From assembly GCA_022979955.1 (NCBI GenBank), contig GCA_022979955.1_3642.1: a stretch of DNA of 64,000 nt; one strand, written 5' to 3'. The stretch comes from a phage. A program made the position numbers and the translations under genes. The notes beneath the pieces are model-generated. The model had not been told where the DNA came from and did no database searches. It worked only from the letters and a program-made list of their open reading frames with translations. Below, one piece after another: positions 51,301 through 58,219 of this stretch (position 1 is its first letter; each line of letters opens with the position of its first letter).

Positions 51301-52062
51301 TTAAAGTTCCATAAAGTTTTCTACAGTCTCAATGAATGTTTTATCAGAGAAGGCATCAACCGCACCGTTAAACCAAACTGGGATGCCACGATCCTCATAC
51401 TGGTAAATATCACTACGTGAAATGCCATTCTCCTCTAGATGCTGTGAGTCGTATTTATTAACGATCAGTAGTTTGGTTCCCTTATTGCAGGCAGGGAATA
51501 GCTCCCAGTTAAAATTGATAACTGTGTTGGAGCACCCTACAAGGATAACCATATCATTGCTCGTAAGAGAAGTCAACAGGTCATACATGTCTGTATACTT
51601 CGGAGCTACTTCTCCGAAGAACACCACATTAGGCTTAACCCAGGTATACTTTCCTGCGTCTACCTCAGAGTATCCAATGTCCTTAATGACGTCACTTCCT
51701 TCATCGTCCTCATAGACTATTTCTGGCAAATACCCGTGGACATGTAAAATATCTTCATGTTTTACACCAGCACGCTCCAGCAAATCATCTACATTGGTGG
51801 TAAGGTTGATCACACGACCAGACCAGCGGGAATACCACTCAGCGATCCGAAGATGTGCAAGGTTAGGCTCAACACTGCCTAAAGCTACACGACGTGCATT
51901 GTAAAAGTCATGCACCTTATAGTAGTTCTTGGCAAAGGTGTGGATGTTGCACACCTCATCGATGCTGAAATTCTCCCACATTGCAGTGCTACCAGATCGG
52001 AAAGTGGGAATACCAGATTCAGCGCTCAAACCAGCACCGGAGATAATAATCAGTCGTCGCAT
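51301..52062 (-). CDS. Sir2-family (sirtuin-like) NAD-dependent protein, apparently lacking Zn-ribbon
   Basis: GAGLSAESGIPTFR, TTNVDDLLERAG, VHGYL, VVFFGE motifs; no CxxC pairs between them. Confidence 0.7.
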   Translation of the reverse strand: MRRLIIISGAGLSAESGIPTFRSGSTAMWENFSIDEVCNIHTFAKNYYKVHDFYNARRVALGSVEPNLAHLRIAEWYSRWSGRVINLTTNVDDLLERAGVKHEDILHVHGYLPEIVYEDDEGSDVIKDIGYSEVDAGKYTWVKPNVVFFGEVAPKYTDMYDLLTSLTSNDMVILVGCSNTVINFNWELFPACNKGTKLLIVNKYDSQHLEENGISRSDIYQYEDRGIPVWFNGAVDAFSDKTFIETVENFMEL

Positions 52063-52070
52063 AAGTGTCC

Positions 52071-52421
52071 TCAGTAGATGTTTTGTTTAATCTCTATTCC
52101 AAACTTTTTAAACGAGTCAGCTGCAAGCATGAATTTACGAGCCGCTGATGGGTTAGAAGTATGCACGAAAATCTTCACGTTGTCAACTACAGGAGGCTTA
52201 CCAAATACAAATTTTTCCTCCAACATAGATAGGCAATCGTACCCTTCGAATACCTCTCCAAGGTCGTTGTCCATATGCCACTCAGAAACGCGTCTGTAGA
52301 GCTTTCTATTATCGTTAATAAAATCTATAAACTCGGAGGAATTCTTTAGCCAAACAGCGTCTTGGAGCCCGTACTTTGACGGATCTCTCAAGTCATCCAG
52401 CCACACAATCAACTTCTTCAT
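52071..52421 (-). CDS. hypothetical protein (possible CheY-like receiver fold)
   Basis: ORF 52071..52451 trimmed to MKKLIV start at 52421 abutting RNA ligase stop; DD...D...T pattern IVWLDD / HMDNDLGE / VHTSNP. Confidence 0.4.
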   Translation of the reverse strand: MKKLIVWLDDLRDPSKYGLQDAVWLKNSSEFIDFINDNRKLYRRVSEWHMDNDLGEVFEGYDCLSMLEEKFVFGKPPVVDNVKIFVHTSNPSAARKFMLAADSFKKFGIEIKQNIY

Positions 52422-53353
52422 TGCATATAGTCCTCGTTGTGAAAATAGCAATCAAGTATCTCACGGCGTTCCTGCTCCAGGAGGCAGTTCCACACATCTT
52501 CTGTGTAATTGCTACGAATGAAGTTTACCATGCCGTAAAACTCTTCGTCAATACGTTTAAAGATATCATCATCCCAAATCTTCCAAGCTTTACCCCTCAT
52601 TACGGCCTTCCGTGCCAAATAGTATGGAGACTTGATCTTCAGCTGCAGGTCATAAGGGTAGTAAGGCTTACGGATCATATACCCTTCGCCCCTTGTTTCT
52701 GCAGCTAATTCTTTTGCATAGCTGAACGGGATTTCACGCACAGTGTGAGGACGTTTTGCACCAAGGTATTTGGCAATCCCATCTAAAGCTGCTTCTGGTA
52801 GCATTATTCCAGAATCATTATATCTGCAACCTATCAAATATGCGCCATGGTCTTCTTGAACAATATGCGGATCTGAAGGGTGACAAATTTCAAACATGAA
52901 TGTCATGTTTTCATTGCCCATAACCTTCTTGATAAGATCTAAATTACCACATTGCTCTTGGATGGTTTCCTTTGCAAGGTTACAATATGGAGAATCAAGA
53001 GACCCGGTTGTTGAGAACAATAGGTCACCTTTATGAGATGATACCACACCAAGGAATCCGTTCTTTTTCTCTACCGCAGTCACAAGCTTATTGTCAGGCA
53101 GGTTGGTGGAGTTTTCTCCCAAGTTAAACACTTTTGTGAAGGGCCATGCCACAACATTTCCTTCATTACCTACAACAATGCCTCGGCACTCCAGTAAACG
53201 AGGGGACAAATGCCATAAATTGTTGTAAAATACTTTTCTAGCATATTTATAGATCTTTAACCCGAGATCTGGGTAATACCTACTGGTTACAAGACCTTTG
53301 TCAACTAGGTCGTCTGCATTAAAATACTTCATCATACGTTCCTCATTTGTCAT
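52418..53353 (-). CDS. Rnl1-family RNA ligase
   Basis: LLECRGIVVGNEG...TKVFNLGEN...TAVEKKNGFLGVV tracks T4 Rnl1 segment ALECRGIMF...KFFNLNEN...TKEDGSLVS (recalled), incl. motif I lysine. Confidence 0.65.
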   Translation of the reverse strand: MTNEERMMKYFNADDLVDKGLVTSRYYPDLGLKIYKYARKVFYNNLWHLSPRLLECRGIVVGNEGNVVAWPFTKVFNLGENSTNLPDNKLVTAVEKKNGFLGVVSSHKGDLLFSTTGSLDSPYCNLAKETIQEQCGNLDLIKKVMGNENMTFMFEICHPSDPHIVQEDHGAYLIGCRYNDSGIMLPEAALDGIAKYLGAKRPHTVREIPFSYAKELAAETRGEGYMIRKPYYPYDLQLKIKSPYYLARKAVMRGKAWKIWDDDIFKRIDEEFYGMVNFIRSNYTEDVWNCLLEQERREILDCYFHNEDYMQ

Positions 53354-53396
53354 TTTGTCAGTCTATCCTGCCACACAAATAACCTGGTGTCAACAC

Positions 53397-53425
53397 TTGA
53401 AATTAACAAAACAGTTAGGTATACT
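53397..53425 (+). promoter_or_regulatory. sigma70-like promoter TTGAAA-N17-TATACT
   Basis: divergent intergenic region; hexamers read directly. Confidence 0.45.
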
Positions 53426-53453
53426 ATCGTTGAAATTAAAACGGAGGGTCACT

Positions 53454-53864
53454 ATGTCTAAAATGCTATATATCGTGCGTGGTCTGCCAGGGTCTGGCAA
53501 ATCAACACTGGCAAATGCGCTATCTTTAGAGGGTCTGTATCCACATTTTGAGAACGACATGTTCTGGTATGACGATGACGGCAATTACAACTGGGATGCA
53601 AGTAAAGTAACACTCGCAGCGAAATGGTGCAAAGATAACGTAGAAGATATGATGCGTATGGGATACGACCGTATCGTGGTAAGTAATACGTTTACAAAAG
53701 AAAAACATGTGCAGGAATATGTTGACATGGCAATCAGTCATGGGTATAGTTATACCGTGATCGTGGTTGAAAACCGCCACGGTAATAAAAGCATTCATGA
53801 TGTTCCAGACAAGGTTGTGGATCGTATGGAACGCCAGCTTAAAAACTGCATTAAACTTAAATGA
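53454..53864 (+). CDS. polynucleotide kinase-like P-loop kinase
   Basis: ORF 53298..53864 trimmed to ATG with GGAGGG SD; P-loop GLPGSGKST as in T4 Pnk kinase domain. Confidence 0.55.
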   Translation: MSKMLYIVRGLPGSGKSTLANALSLEGLYPHFENDMFWYDDDGNYNWDASKVTLAAKWCKDNVEDMMRMGYDRIVVSNTFTKEKHVQEYVDMAISHGYSYTVIVVENRHGNKSIHDVPDKVVDRMERQLKNCIKLK

Positions 53865-53871
53865 GGAATGT

Positions 53872-54426
53872 ATGAAATACTTTGTAACAAGCGACACACA
53901 CTTTCTCCACCAGCGGGTCATGGAGTTCGATTCATGTCAAAAACACAGATCTCAGTATGATCACAATCTTGACAGTATGAATGCGGGAATCATCACCAAG
54001 TGGAACTCTGTTGTGTCACCTGCAGACACTGTGTTTCACTTGGGAGATATTGCGTGCACTAATGATAAGAATATCAACAAATTGCTCCCAGATGTTCTAA
54101 ATATGTTGAACGGACATATTATTCTTGTTCGTGGTAACCATGACACAAGGACGACTGTCAGAATTATGAAAGAGTTCGGTCATGAGGTTGTAGATTATTA
54201 CGAGCTTCGCCACAACAAGAATTTGATCTGTATGAGCCATTACCAGTTTGCAAAGTGGAACAGAAAGCCTCACGGATCAGTCCAACTGTTCGGTCATGCT
54301 CACGGAACCACACAGCAGTTGTTTGGCAGGCAGTTTGATGTCGGTTGGGATGTGTGGGGGAGACTCTTACCATTAGAAGAGGCATACCGTATTGCAATGA
54401 GTCTTGCTATTGACAGCGGGGAGTAA
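53872..54426 (+). CDS. metallophosphoesterase (calcineurin-like phosphatase)
   Basis: ORF 53767..54426 trimmed to ATG with GAGGA SD; VTSDTHF, HLGDI, VRGNHD motifs. Confidence 0.6.
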   Translation: MKYFVTSDTHFLHQRVMEFDSCQKHRSQYDHNLDSMNAGIITKWNSVVSPADTVFHLGDIACTNDKNINKLLPDVLNMLNGHIILVRGNHDTRTTVRIMKEFGHEVVDYYELRHNKNLICMSHYQFAKWNRKPHGSVQLFGHAHGTTQQLFGRQFDVGWDVWGRLLPLEEAYRIAMSLAIDSGE

Positions 54427-54473
54427 TCCCTGCTATTTTAAAGAAAATTGCCACACAAGGAGAATCAGGAGAT

Positions 54474-54824
54474 ATGAAAGATGGGGATAAGCTGCTATAT
54501 CTTAAAGTCCCCCTTGAAATACTGTCTATGTCAAAAGTTTTGAATGACACAACTGGGGAGGTTGTTGTTCTTGACTTATATGACAAGATCGTATACTGCT
54601 ACCTGCACAACTGGTATAAGCTTGGAGGAAATTCACGCTTCACACCCAGCACAAGGAAAATTGCAGCAGATGTTGGGATAAAGAAAACAAAAGCAGCAGC
54701 GTGCGTTAAAACTTTAGAATGTGCAGGAGTGGTTGAAATATCCACACAAGGGAGAGGTAAAAGATGTACATTTTCCAAAGTTTTGCCACCAGAAGAGGTT
54801 ATTCGAATGTCAACAACTGGTTAG
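54474..54824 (+). CDS. winged-helix/HTH DNA-binding protein (candidate origin-binding or regulatory protein)
   Basis: TRKIAADVGIKKTKAAACVKTLECAGVV HTH-like segment; GAATCAGGAGA SD; iterons immediately downstream. Confidence 0.45.
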   Translation: MKDGDKLLYLKVPLEILSMSKVLNDTTGEVVVLDLYDKIVYCYLHNWYKLGGNSRFTPSTRKIAADVGIKKTKAAACVKTLECAGVVEISTQGRGKRCTFSKVLPPEEVIRMSTTG

Positions 54825-54895
54825 ACCAGTAAAAACTTAAATATCTGTACTATAAGGATTCGTATGTTTTATGTTCGCTCTGGAACAGAGGTCAG

Positions 54896-54981
54896 TAACT
54901 GTCCGTGATACGGACACTACTGTCCGTCACGCGGACACATCTGCCCGTAATACGGACACTAACTGTCCGTGATACGGACAC
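54896..54981. repeat. four tandem 21-22 bp iterons, each with core GTCCGT-N3/4-ACGGACAC
   Basis: 54896..54917, 54918..54938, 54939..54959, 54960..54981 read directly; copies 1 and 4 identical. Confidence 0.7.
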
Positions 54982-55125
54982 ATAAAGAATATAACTAAAA
55001 TAACTAAATAATAAAAATAAAAGATCTAGTACTTATGGTACTAAGTACATATACTTAACTTATGTAGAATATACTAGATCCTAAGTACCATGTTTTAAAA
55101 TTATTACTTACTATAGGTAGTGTCG
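54982..55125. other. AT-rich tract with short palindromes next to the iterons (candidate DNA-unwinding element)
   Basis: ATAACTAAA x2, AGTAC...GTACT palindromes; no ORF. Confidence 0.45.
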
Positions 55126-55400
55126 GCCCTTCATTGGCACTCGCCTACGAGGGGCGAGATGCCGGGCCTCCTTGGTGCACACAATAACAGAAGTGCATAC
55201 ATGCAGGTCTGTTAACATGTGTGGGAGCGAAGCGATAGCGCAGGCCAAAGGCCGAGCACTGATGTGGACCACCGACGAAAGCTTGCCAGCGCCGTAAGGA
55301 GTCGGTTGAGAGTCTCCCGCGCGAGCTTGGATGAAGTTTATGTGTGGAAACTGACAAGAAGGCCCCTAAATCGCTCCACAGCTATATAAACTATACCAGG
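55126..55400. ncRNA. candidate structured non-coding RNA (GC-rich, nested hairpins)
   Basis: no SD-associated ORF; nested stem GGCCC..GGCA/CTCGCC-TACGAG-GGCGAG/TGCC..GGGCC and further hairpins. Confidence 0.35.
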
Positions 55401-55483
55401 TAATGCAATCGCACCAGTTTGATAGAAAAGCTCGTTACAAAGTGATACAGTGAGTTTTTCTATAACTTGAAGAGGAGGCAGCT

Positions 55484-56062
55484 ATGGGTTCACGCAAAGA
55501 TGACCGTGAAAAGATTGCAAAACGTTATCAGAATGAAGAACAGATGGAGAAAACTTTCAAGTGGAAGCCTGGTTTCCAGCGTAATCATTCTAACGCTCGT
55601 GATCGTAAGCATCCGGATAAGTGGCTAACACCGCCAAATGATGGCATGCAGGTTGGTGATGAGAAGGAGATGTCACCTGGAAAAGATGGCAACTACATTC
55701 GCACTAAGGAAGCTGGTCCAAAGGATGACAGCTATCTTGTAGATAAGGTTCTTAATGGTATTGATGTAGATGTTGACACTGCACGAAACCTTTTTCTTGG
55801 TTGGTATCGTACAGGGTTTTTCGACATCAAGGCTATTCGTCGTGTTTGCGATATTAAAAAGTCTGCCTATGATGATGACTCCCTACATCGCACTCTGAGA
55901 CAATACTCAGAGAGATACGGTCATCCAGTTATCACTCTTGACGATATTAACGAAGTGATGTATCATGCAGAGGTTGTTGCAGGTAGATTCGGTGATGCAT
56001 ATCTAGATATCCTTTCTGCAAAGGATGAGGTAATGTTAAATAAGATTTACTATGAACGCTGA
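55484..56062 (+). CDS. hypothetical protein
   Basis: ORF track; GAGGAGG SD. Confidence 0.5.
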   Translation: MGSRKDDREKIAKRYQNEEQMEKTFKWKPGFQRNHSNARDRKHPDKWLTPPNDGMQVGDEKEMSPGKDGNYIRTKEAGPKDDSYLVDKVLNGIDVDVDTARNLFLGWYRTGFFDIKAIRRVCDIKKSAYDDDSLHRTLRQYSERYGHPVITLDDINEVMYHAEVVAGRFGDAYLDILSAKDEVMLNKIYYER

Positions 56063-56589: not shown

Positions 56590-56900
56590 CGTGTATCATG
56601 ATGAATATCCAATTTAAAGATGAATTTGATGGCTTTATCTCCGGATGCTTTGAAACAGGGTTCGGAGAAGACTGAGTTCCCCTCAGAGGGCTTGATAGTG
56701 CACCACACTTAAAATGGTAGGGGCAGCCAGCACATGACGATGTGACCCCAGCCAACCTGTAACAAGGTCGAGCCGAAGCGCGGGTAATAGGCCTCTGGTA
56801 ACCCACTTGTTGGGTCTTGCTGGTCCAGGACGCTGGACAAGTCGCAGGGAATACCACCCTGCGGCGAACTTGACAATCAGTATTTGCTATGATAAAATCC
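56590..56900. ncRNA. candidate structured non-coding region (several GC hairpins)
   Basis: hairpins CACATGACGATGTG, GTCCAGG-ACG-CTGGAC, CGCAGGG-AATACCA-CCCTGCG; ORF 56807 start lacks SD. Confidence 0.3.
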
Positions 56901-56926
56901 ACCTATCACGTGATAATGGAGGAAAC

Positions 56927-57361: not shown

Positions 57362-57436
57362 GCCCTGTTAGCTTAGTGGATAAAGCAGCGGCCTTCTAAG
57401 CCGTTGACACTGGTTCGAGTCCAGTACGGGGTGCCA
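57362..57436 (+). tRNA. tRNA-Arg (anticodon UCU)
   Basis: hand-folded cloverleaf: acceptor GCCCTGT/ACGGGGT, anticodon loop CTTCTAA, T-loop TTCGAGT, 3' CCA encoded. Confidence 0.7.
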
Positions 57437-57440
57437 AATT

Positions 57441-57527
57441 GGGGAGTTATCCCGTAGAGGTAGCGGTGTAGACTGTAAATCTATTGTCATTGCGACTCGG
57501 GTGGTTCGACTCCACCACTCCCCACCA
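57441..57527 (+). tRNA. tRNA-Tyr (anticodon GUA), type II long variable arm
   Basis: acceptor GGGGAGT/ACTCCCC, anticodon loop CTGTAAA, T-arm GGTGG-TTCGACT-CCACC, CCA encoded. Confidence 0.7.
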
Positions 57528-57641
57528 AATTTATATTTTTAGATGCGTAAATAATACAGATAATGGCATTGATATTTATCGTCGTTTATACTAGTCACTA
57601 ACTGCTCGAAAATCAGTGTCATTATCAGTATAATTTATAAA

Positions 57642-57732
57642 GGAGGGTAGGGAGCAATGGTGCTCAAGCGGTCTTGAAAACCGTCCCATTGAGGATGACT
57701 CGATGATGGTTCGATTCCATTACTCTCCGCCA
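57642..57732 (+). tRNA. tRNA-Ser (anticodon UGA), type II
   Basis: acceptor GGAGGGT/ACTCTCC, anticodon loop CTTGAAA, long variable arm, T-loop TTCGATT, CCA encoded. Confidence 0.65.
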
Positions 57733-57830
57733 CATTGTTGACCTTGTAATTAAGCGAAAGCCGGAAGCAGAACCGGATTATCAAATGTTACAGTCGTCAT
57801 CGCCGACTAGCAACATGGTCAACATACTGA

Positions 57831-57927
57831 GCTAGGTAAGCCCTTTGGCAAGGGCGAGGATTTTTAATCCTGAAAATAGACGAGGTAGTCGTTGAATACA
57901 TAGGTGGTTCGATTCCACCGCCTAGCA
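57831..57927 (+). tRNA. atypical tRNA-like gene (anticodon loop TTTTTAA, nominal Lys-UUU) with about 30-nt extra arm
   Basis: acceptor GCTAGGT/GCCTAGC, D-arm GCCC-TTTGGCAA-GGGC, T-arm GGTGG-TTCGATT-CCACC; 4-bp anticodon stem; no encoded CCA. Confidence 0.35.
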
Positions 57928-57933
57928 CCTTTT

Positions 57934-58009
57934 GCTGATGTAGCACAATTGGCAGTGCAATTGATTTGTAATCAATAGGTTGCAGGTTCAAGTCCTGCCA
58001 TCAGCACCA
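57934..58009 (+). tRNA. tRNA-Thr (anticodon UGU)
   Basis: acceptor GCTGATG/CATCAGC, anticodon stem ATTGA/TCAAT with loop TTTGTAA, T-arm GCAGG-TTCAAGT-CCTGC, CCA encoded. Confidence 0.75.
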
Positions 58010-58010
58010 T

Positions 58011-58085
58011 GGCCCTGTAGCTGGAAGGTTCAAGCAAGCGACTCATAATCGCCAGATGGTGGTTCAATTCCACCCAGGGCCACCA
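58011..58085 (+). tRNA. tRNA with CAU anticodon (Met, or Ile if lysidine-modified)
   Basis: acceptor GGCCCTG/CAGGGCC, anticodon loop CTCATAA, T-arm GGTGG-TTCAATT-CCACC, CCA encoded. Confidence 0.65.
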
Positions 58086-58096
58086 AATTATAAATA

Positions 58097-58163
58097 CTCC
58101 GCGTAGCTCAGCTTGGTAGAGCGCCTGATTTGGGATCAGGAGGTCGAGTGTTCGAATCACTCC
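58097..58163 (+). tRNA. tRNA-Pro (anticodon UGG)
   Basis: acceptor CTCCGCG/CGTGGAG, anticodon stem CCTGA/TCAGG with loop TTTGGGA, T-loop TTCGAAT, CCA encoded. Confidence 0.7.
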
Positions 58164-58219
58164 GTGGAGACCACCTTTAGTTATACTTTAAACATATACA
58201 AACGAAAGGAACCTTTAAA

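Follow-up and report, generated by a model that had tools for sequence, protein, structure and literature searches.

The DNA studied here is a 64,000-nt stretch of phage DNA (contig GCA_022979955.1_3642.1 of assembly GCA_022979955.1), hereafter referred to as the window. Between positions 54474 and 55125 it carries a gene for a 116-amino-acid winged-helix protein, an array of four iteron-like repeats and an AT-rich tract. The best reading of this locus is that of an iteron-type replication origin of an rV5-like phage and of a cognate protein that binds it, a reading to which we assign a probability of about 0.6 on the grounds of sequence comparison and structure modeling. On the same grounds, the locus is the best candidate yet for the origin of an rV5-like phage. 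A first-pass annotation of the window, made from the letters alone, had proposed a replication origin at this position. That interpretation is now supported by the initiator-type fold of the protein, by the uniqueness of the repeats in the genome, by the location of the most meltable DNA next to them, by the lack of a predicted sigma-70-like promoter or terminator and by the presence of analogous cassettes in other phages.

The source of the window is, by sequence identity, a Vequintavirus, i.e., an rV5-like coliphage. Positions 54400-55500 are 98-100% identical to the DNA of more than 100 rV5-like phages (genus Vequintavirus), and are 100% identical to phage D1 ("Campylobacter phage D1," MG065646), the 137,167-bp genome of which was used for genome-wide comparisons. 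No origin is annotated in the records inspected. In the literature searched we found no paper on one, no origin mapping or replication profiling of any Vequintavirus and no paper combining Vequintavirinae and iterons.

Four Phased Palindromic Repeats Adjoin the Most Meltable DNA of the Window

Tandem Repeats Finder (TRF) detects at positions 54898-54981 an array (no strand assigned) with a period of 21, 4.0 copies and a score of 110, the highest among the 21-nt-period arrays in the 64-kb window. Every copy includes the 17-bp palindrome TGTCCGT-N3-ACGGACA, located at 54900-54916, 54921-54937, 54942-54958 and 54964-54980, with 0, 1, 1 and 0 mismatches to the consensus, respectively. The palindromes are spaced by 21, 21 and 22 bp, that is, by about two helical turns, and the centers of their half-sites lie 10 bp apart. 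Four head-to-tail repeats of 21-22 bp had already been described in the first-pass annotation, and both TRF and the motif search bear them out; none of 100 dinucleotide shuffles reached the observed motif count. The dyad reported at that time (GTCCGT-N3/4-ACGGAC) is likewise present, but not its variable spacer, as the arms are separated by 3 nt in all four copies. When the motif was searched for in the window, every other site was found to have at least two mismatches, and in the complete D1 genome the motif is confined to this array. The palindromes lie 75 bp past the stop codon of the 116-amino-acid gene, outside any open reading frame (ORF), and two GenBank records mark a bare "repeat_region." Direct repeats that contain inverted sub-repeats and adjoin the gene, as found here, correspond to the arrangement of RepA_N-type iteron origins, the iterons of which have been described as semi-palindromic direct repeats (PMC7145576). 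An 18-nt imperfect inverted repeat (54834-54851/55044-55061, 83% complementary) encloses the array and the core of the AT-rich tract, and may be due to chance.

The GC content falls to 0.22-0.28 across positions 54950-55100. The least stable 40-bp and 80-bp duplexes of the whole window both start at 54982-54983, the first base past the last repeat. The 40-bp minimum is -36.4 kcal/mol, compared with a mean of -51.7 (sd 3.6), and is hence 4.2 sd off; the corresponding values for 80 bp are -79.9 kcal/mol and a mean of -104.6 (sd 5.4), which is 4.6 sd off. The AT-richest segments of 40, 100, and 150 nt in the entire D1 genome have the corresponding position as their first base, with AT contents of 92.5, 81, and 77%, respectively. 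We therefore delimited, on the basis of duplex stability and of the AT content of D1, a core of the tract at 54982-55022 (no strand assigned) as a putative DNA-unwinding element. Phased repeats that directly adjoin an AT-rich element are the arrangement of iteron-type theta origins such as those of lambda, plasmids and SaPI.

The TRF output includes ATAACTAAA-like 9-mers at 54991-55020, and a motif scan located on the minus strand, at 55014-55026, a sequence resembling the oriC 13-mer, GATCTTTTATTTT. This is the sole exact match in the window to GATCTnTTnTTTT, which we take to be the consensus of the Escherichia coli oriC 13-mers. A single match inside an AT-rich tract could be due to chance, and the same pattern with one mismatch allowed is not enriched in the window. 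There are no DnaA boxes near the locus, and their window-wide count is at chance. The rest of the AT-rich tract (55023-55124, no strand assigned), delimited by GC content, inverted-repeat scan and conservation, contains two GATC sites (55023 and 55077) and two inverted repeats, GATCTAGTA/TACTAGATC at 55023-31/55072-80 and ATGGTACTAAG/CTAAGTACCAT at 55035-45/55081-91, in agreement with the AT-rich DNA with short palindromes that had been noted downstream of the repeats.

The Adjacent Gene Encodes a Winged-Helix Protein Resembling RepA_N Initiators

The gene preceding the array (54474-54824, plus strand) encodes the putative origin-binding protein. When compared with PHROGs, this protein matches phrog_12838, "replication initiation protein" (2.5e-80), and more weakly the N-termini of the larger initiator families 8102, 428 and 270. 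"Replication initiation protein" is also the RefSeq label of the gene, which apparently follows the PHROG annotation. The best match of the family profile against the PDB is 4RO3 (E 1.8e-6), the N-terminal DNA-binding domain of Vibrio cholerae PLE RepA (PMC7145576). PLE RepA is an initiator of the RepA_N family, for which electrophoretic mobility shift assays and genetics show binding to semi-palindromic iterons at the PLE origin (PMC7145576).

The structure of the protein was modeled with AlphaFold2 (AF2). A model based on five near-identical sequences was unusable (pLDDT 47), and an 18-sequence alignment was used instead, with which a confident winged helix was obtained (pLDDT 81, pTM 0.77). 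The top Foldseek matches of this model in the PDB are all N-terminal domains of RepA_N initiators, namely 4RO3 (TM 0.67, E 1e-5), 4PQL, 4PT7 and 5KBJ, the latter being a Rep-iteron DNA complex of a staphylococcal plasmid RepA. The profile search and the AF2/Foldseek analysis thus predict a winged-helix domain of the RepA_N/DnaD-N fold. The helix-turn-helix or winged-helix-like protein previously suspected from the sequence is thereby confirmed at the level of the model, and the caution with which it had been presented, as an initiator or a repressor, is still fair for a protein that consists of a DNA-binding domain only. At E <0.1 the protein has no match to Phage_rep_O (PF04492), so it does not qualify as a lambda O-type initiator.

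Some relatives of the protein are longer. A distant one, P0013 (metagenomic, 228 amino acids), combines a GIY-YIG nuclease with DUF6945, the same architecture as that of ICP1 Odn, an origin-directed nuclease that cuts the PLE iterons (PMC8263062). The longer DUF6945 relatives P0009, P0016, P0017, P0022, P0023 and P0032 (146-217 amino acids) carry an acidic tail ending in ...[DE]xPF or ...NPPF, a tail absent from the window protein and from its counterparts in other Vequintavirinae. Acidic tails of this kind resemble the SSB C-terminal tip and the tails of T7 gp2.5 and gp4, an analogy that hints at replisome contacts of these longer relatives.

The Array and the AT-Rich Tract Are Conserved Within Vequintavirus

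Homologues of the protein were found only in Vequintavirus, in 119 phage records with at least 88.8% identity, as well as in metagenomic clusters down to 86%. Beyond the genus, nothing but weak DUF6945/HTH_36 relatives emerged from an exhaustive HMMER search. Conservation of the DNA was analyzed by comparing eight divergent genomes and three metagenomic contigs. Among these sequences the array has no indels and few substitutions, which affect mostly the spacer or the innermost position of the arms. The AT-rich tract is almost invariant, with a single A-run that varies in length, and the approximately 25 nt directly upstream of the array vary freely. Judging from these alignments, the array and the AT-rich tract are under strong purifying selection within the genus, and a nearly invariant array beside a variable spacer is the pattern expected of a selected protein-binding array.

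Protein and Repeat Types Change Together in Related Phages

BLAST searches did not find the window protein in other Vequintavirinae. These phages encode instead another small member of the superfamily, whose gene is found at the major divergent junction, beside those for PRPP-synthetase and NAMPT. In PVP-SE1 (gene 99) and Hena1 (gp088) this protein belongs to phrog_8453, with weak DnaD-like and initiator PHROG matches; in KpS11 (KpS11_100) and pEp_SNUABM_01 (gp227) it belongs to phrog_8102, "replication initiation protein." A further protein of this kind, PMW_115, is a DUF6945 protein encoded at a divergent junction of phiPMW, a Pseudomonas phage of an unrelated genus. The phiPMW, KpS11 and pEp_SNUABM_01 proteins are above the DUF6945 cut-off, and these three types weakly match PHROGs named "replication initiation O-like."

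Beside each of these genes there are two to three direct repeats, 23-26 bp apart, each of them with an internal dyad: ATTCCC-N4-GGGWAT in PVP-SE1 and Hena1, TGCTCAATTTGAGCA in KpS11 and pEp_SNUABM_01, and three copies of GGACAAAATGTCC in phiPMW. The repeats of these phages precede the gene and occupy an intergenic spacer. They are followed in PVP-SE1, Hena1, KpS11 and pEp_SNUABM_01 by an A-rich tract that is the least stable DNA of the locus; the phiPMW tract is the least stable at 40 bp only, by a small margin, and not at 80 bp. The AT tracts of the Vequintavirinae contain 11 GATC sites where 2.3 are expected, a figure that is indicative only, as the tracts were picked after inspection and the loci are related. 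A 13-mer-like element with one mismatch occurs, with its orientation toward the repeats preserved, in three of four related tracts (PVP-SE1, KpS11 and pEp_SNUABM_01). In Aeromonas Plateaulakevirus a homologue of the protein was found, without dyad repeats nearby.

Each repeat motif was found only beside its own protein type and is absent from the other loci compared. Hence, as far as these sequences indicate, the type of initiator-like protein and the type of repeat change together as cassettes. Hena1 (locus L010, 2183-2298) and pEp_SNUABM_01 (locus L016, 2864-2909) belong to one genus, Henunavirus, and differ in the cassette that occupies the syntenic position flanked by the PRPP-synthetase gene and the phosphoesterase operon, a distribution that implies, at the level of sequence, cassette replacement by recombination. 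The covariation of protein and repeats matches the modular swapping of RepA_N domains and origins in PLEs, which has been shown experimentally (PMC8263062).

Genome Position and Transcription Signals

The cumulative GC skew of D1 has its global minimum at 65437, equivalent to position ~53412 of the window. This point is at the divergent junction (~53353-53448), about 1.5 kb from the array. In other Vequintavirinae genera the cassette is located exactly at the divergent junction, and the comparison indicates that a rearrangement in Vequintavirus shifted the winged-helix gene about 1 kb off it. The repeats and the AT-rich tract moved with the gene instead of remaining at the promoters, which connects them with the protein and not with a promoter role.

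A promoter scan identified a sigma-70-like promoter (TTGACA, 18 nt, TATTTT, with TG upstream) at 54410-54439 on the plus strand, just before the winged-helix gene; the motif search found no copies of the repeat in it. Neither a sigma-70-like promoter nor a terminator was found in 54825-55480, either by scanning or in Table S4 of the rV5 paper, phage-specific promoters being outside the reach of the scans. Transcription of the array is probable, given that the scan revealed no terminator separating it from the gene.

Comparison With Known Replication Origins

The closest parallels are the RepA_N replicons. The DNA-binding fold is shared, the best structural matches (4RO3, 4PQL, 4PT7 and 5KBJ) corresponding to PLE RepA and to the RepA proteins of the staphylococcal plasmids pSK41 and pTZ2162. 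Direct repeats with inverted sub-repeats are also common to both, pSK41 having four Rep boxes and PLE three semi-palindromic iterons of ~30 bp. As in PLE, the DNA-binding domain changes together with the origin in the manner of exchangeable modules, and there is in addition a link to ICP1, the phage whose infection PLE RepA needs to drive replication and whose DNA polymerase is listed in the rV5 paper as one of the nearest to that of rV5. Unlike in RepA_N replicons, the phage protein lacks the linker and the C-terminal domain, which is essential in pSK41, where it interacts with DnaG, and conserved in PLE RepA. The phage repeats are downstream of the gene, whereas those of pSK41 are inside it and those of PLE in a separate non-coding region; their arms are of 7 bp and 3 bp apart, with no central poly-A tract. 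The carrier is a 137-kb lytic myovirus, and the protein has no PF06970 match and stays just under the DUF6945 threshold.

The lambda origin contains four ~19-bp repeats with an internal dyad, bound by dimers of the N-terminal winged-helix domain of the O protein. It resembles the window locus in its four dyad repeats, in the AT-rich unwinding region next to them, with a palindrome beyond it, and in the probable transcription through or near the origin; the weak O-like PHROG matches of the KpS11, pEp_SNUABM_01 and phiPMW relatives are a further resemblance. Unlike the repeats of the window, which lie outside any ORF, the lambda origin is inside gene O. The C-terminal domain of O recruits P-DnaB; the window protein has no Phage_rep_O match, and rV5-like phages bring their own primase-helicase and polymerase. 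With respect to E. coli oriC, whose unwinding element comprises three copies of GATC-initiated AT-rich 13-mers, the likeness consists of the one exact match to GATCTnTTnTTTT, the one-mismatch copies in three related cassettes and the clustering of GATC in the AT tracts; the differences are the lack of DnaA boxes nearby and the single 13-mer instead of three.

A RepA_N-like domain occurs outside a full initiator in ICP1 Odn as well, where it is fused to a GIY-YIG-type nuclease and recognizes origin iterons (PMC8263062). The window protein is the same kind of DNA-binding domain in such a setting, but no nuclease domain is attached to it, and the repeats that it would target belong to its own genome. 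Taken together, the locus resembles the iteron origins of RepA_N replicons (pSK41 and PLE) and of lambda but is a canonical member of neither class: the protein has no C-terminal domain and falls slightly short of the curated Pfam cut-offs, and its gene precedes the repeats.

Weighing of the Origin Interpretation Against Its Alternatives

Several points count against the interpretation of the locus as an origin. The window protein does not reach the threshold of either of the curated families (PF06970 or DUF6945): it has no Pfam match to PF06970 (RepA_N), and its matches to DUF6945 and HTH_36 are just under the cut-offs (27.1 bits for a cut-off of 28, and 24.5 bits for a cut-off of 25, respectively). 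It ends about 20 residues past the wing and is thus a DNA-binding domain alone, with no C-terminal domain for recruitment. In pSK41 Rep a C-terminal domain that contacts the DnaG primase is required (PMC5703833), and replisome recruitment is assigned to the C-terminal domain in PLE RepA (PMC8263062). The minimum of the GC skew carries little weight, as it coincides with the switch in transcription direction and is therefore not specific evidence; the rV5 paper (2013) described the same switch at 66675-66725 (rV5 coordinates), ascribed it to transcription orientation and was unable to place the origin from skew. In PVP-SE1, according to our own reading of the sequence, the repeats are just upstream of the -35-like hexamer of the winged-helix gene, in the divergent promoter region, a position that would be just as expected of an autoregulatory operator. 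The literature searched yielded no essentiality data on a genome-wide scale for an rV5-like phage, the CRISPRi-ART work on the rV5-like phage EdH4 not being genome-wide. Finally, the array is very stable as RNA (-44.6 kcal/mol for the fold of 54885-55000, z-score -6.8), so a role at the transcript level is possible.

The first alternative explanation is that the repeats are an operator array through which the winged-helix protein represses or activates transcription, with no direct role in replication. The protein might block read-through from the early operon into the downstream genes, the tRNA cluster and the late region, or control a non-sigma-70 promoter within the AT-rich tract. Many GenBank records name the gene a "putative transcriptional regulator," a DNA-binding domain that has no effector domain attached is what one typically sees in repressors, and the lower-ranked Foldseek, Pfam and profile matches are to generic winged-helix regulators such as CodY, LexA and MarR; the repeats are promoter-proximal in other genera too, and AT-rich DNA is normal for promoter regions. 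Nevertheless, the top matches in fold and sequence are all to replication initiators, and the promoter-like site of the gene itself, at 54410, contains no repeats, the array being downstream of the gene in a region (54825-55480) with no predicted sigma-70-like promoter or terminator. Moreover, as the gene moved away from the divergent junction, the repeats and the AT-rich tract accompanied it instead of staying at the promoters, and this tract, the most extreme of the 137-kb genome, exceeds what a promoter needs. We consider a purely regulatory array rather unlikely, albeit the main competitor of the origin reading, and an operator role could coexist with origin function, as is the case in plasmid Rep proteins.

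The stability of the array as RNA underlies a different explanation, namely that tandem hairpins in the 3' untranslated region of an early transcript are a processing site, a stabilizer or a terminator devoid of a U-tract. The probable transcription of the array, with no terminator between it and the gene, is compatible with this, and in phage Aya a T to C substitution in repeat 2 restores a Watson-Crick pair. Other substitutions break the pairing (repeat 4 in SYGMH1 and FV3), and repeat 3 keeps a standing mismatch. No U-tract follows the hairpins, the analogous repeats of other genera are upstream of the gene, and the exact phasing by two helical turns and the adjacent AT-rich tract are left unexplained, all of which renders an RNA-level role highly improbable. 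Even less credit can be given to a pac site, at which the small winged-helix protein would act on the repeats as a small-terminase or lambda Nu1-type factor and start headful packaging. Lambda Nu1 is a winged-helix protein that binds repeated R sites; Vequintaviruses are headful-packaged and circularly permuted, no located pac site was found in the literature searched, and the large terminase gene is ~3.5-4 kb downstream of the array on the same strand. Against this, the best matches of the protein are RepA_N initiators and neither Pfam nor PHROGs gives a match to a terminase family (small-terminase/Nu1), the gene has those of a kinase and a phosphoesterase for neighbors within an early-type operon, and the cassettes of other genera are at the early divergent junction among genes of NAD and nucleotide metabolism, not beside annotated packaging genes.

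Proposed Mechanism and Its Implications

If the locus is an iteron-type origin, dimers of the 116-amino-acid protein would occupy the four palindromes. With half-site centers 10 bp apart and sites two helical turns apart, all dimers would be placed on the same side of the helix. This nucleoprotein assembly would bend the DNA and destabilize the adjoining AT-rich tract (54982-55022 and beyond), where the phage primase-helicase, of the T7 gp4 type, and the Pol A-type polymerase would start bidirectional replication. Transcription aids opening at the lambda origin, and read-through transcription from the early operon may do so here. As the protein lacks the C-terminal domain that recruits the replisome, the helicase would have to enter by self-loading or via another factor. 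According to the rV5 paper, the phage has its own gp4-like primase-helicase and Pol A polymerase, and the proteins most similar to the rV5 DNA polymerase include that of ICP1. PLE RepA, for its part, drives PLE replication only during ICP1 infection, apparently via ICP1-encoded components (PMC7145576).

A broader and more speculative proposal, which we regard as tentative and on balance doubtful, is that the Vequintavirinae and some large lytic phages (phiPMW, possibly Plateaulakevirus) start replication at their origins by means of a minimal initiator made up of a DNA-binding domain only. Such a system would consist of a RepA_N-like winged helix of ~105-160 amino acids, two to four cognate palindromic iterons, a GATC-containing AT tract and a self-loading primase-helicase of the T7/ICP1 type, with the cassettes being exchanged as specificity modules. 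If this is true, cassette exchange could set replication incompatibility as well as susceptibility to PLE-like satellites or to Odn-like origin-directed nucleases.

Phages of the rV5 type are among the E. coli myoviruses most often isolated and used therapeutically, and the locus provides for them a precise origin candidate, made up of 230 bp of DNA and one 116-amino-acid protein. It would also link the replication of large lytic phages to the RepA_N initiator family, the members of which have been characterized mainly in Gram-positive plasmids, the Vibrio PLE satellite being the first characterized Gram-negative example (PMC7145576). Should the origin interpretation hold, it would define a minimal type of initiator that consists of the DNA-binding domain only, account for the swappable protein-plus-repeat cassettes across the Vequintavirinae and offer a handle for engineering, e.g., origin-dependent amplification or replication-defective therapeutic phages.

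Gene Neighborhood and Other Features of the Region

Upstream of the locus, on the minus strand, are the genes for Sir2, a receiver-like protein and an Rnl1-type RNA ligase. Past the divergent junction, the plus strand carries in order the genes for an AAA_33 kinase and a metallophosphoesterase and the 116-amino-acid gene at 54474-54824, followed by 660 bp without an ORF, small ORFs, the tRNA cluster and the large terminase gene. The five genes from Sir2 to the metallophosphoesterase (51301-54426) look like an RNA-repair cluster that spans the divergent junction; the KpS11 counterpart of the receiver-like protein is annotated as a cyclic-phosphate-processing receiver domain. The phiPMW neighborhood is alike, with polynucleotide kinase and RNA ligase genes, then the winged-helix gene and then tRNAs. 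The seven-gene tRNA cluster of the window, a few kb downstream (57362-58173), includes an unusual prediction of 99 nt, "tRNA-???", the anticodon of which is called as four bases (57831-57929).

The AT-rich tract is followed by a GC-rich (55-59%) conserved element without an ORF (55125-55410, plus strand), delimited by GC content, fold and database searches, which occurs only in 119 Vequintavirus records. Its predicted RNA fold on the plus strand is unusually stable, with a z-score of -3.2, and RNAalifold gives one compensatory pair only; phages Murica and typing phage 5 have an 18-nt deletion inside it. The element could be a structured RNA, a leader or a part of the origin module. Rfam, searched with gathering and E-value thresholds, has no family for the array, the AT-rich tract or this element, and the only nearby match, to rli43, is at chance level.

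After the non-coding stretch there is a 192-amino-acid ORF (55484-56062), which is present in the same Vequintavirus genomes as the module and has no Pfam or PDB similarity. Its sole distant homologue, P0039 (50% identity), is encoded after a DNA ligase gene in another phage contig (L023, 4001-4564), at a locus in which no tandem repeats were detected. The idea of a split RepA, with this ORF as the source of the missing C-terminal domain, was considered and, given the lack of Pfam and PDB similarity and of tandem repeats at the P0039 locus, found no support.

A second GC-rich stretch (53-59%) without a convincing ORF is located at 56650-56860. It lies directly upstream of P074, a sigma-70 promoter of the rV5 paper (TTGACA...TAAAAT, ~56870-56900), ahead of a 113-amino-acid gene at 56924.

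With regard to the records that match this region, 18 of the MG0656xx series (D1, C15, A12a and others) are labeled as Campylobacter jejuni phages, yet over this locus they are 98-100% identical to E. coli rV5-like phages, and the D1 record (MG065646) carries an UNVERIFIED flag. The Campylobacter host label of the MG0656xx records is therefore doubtful.

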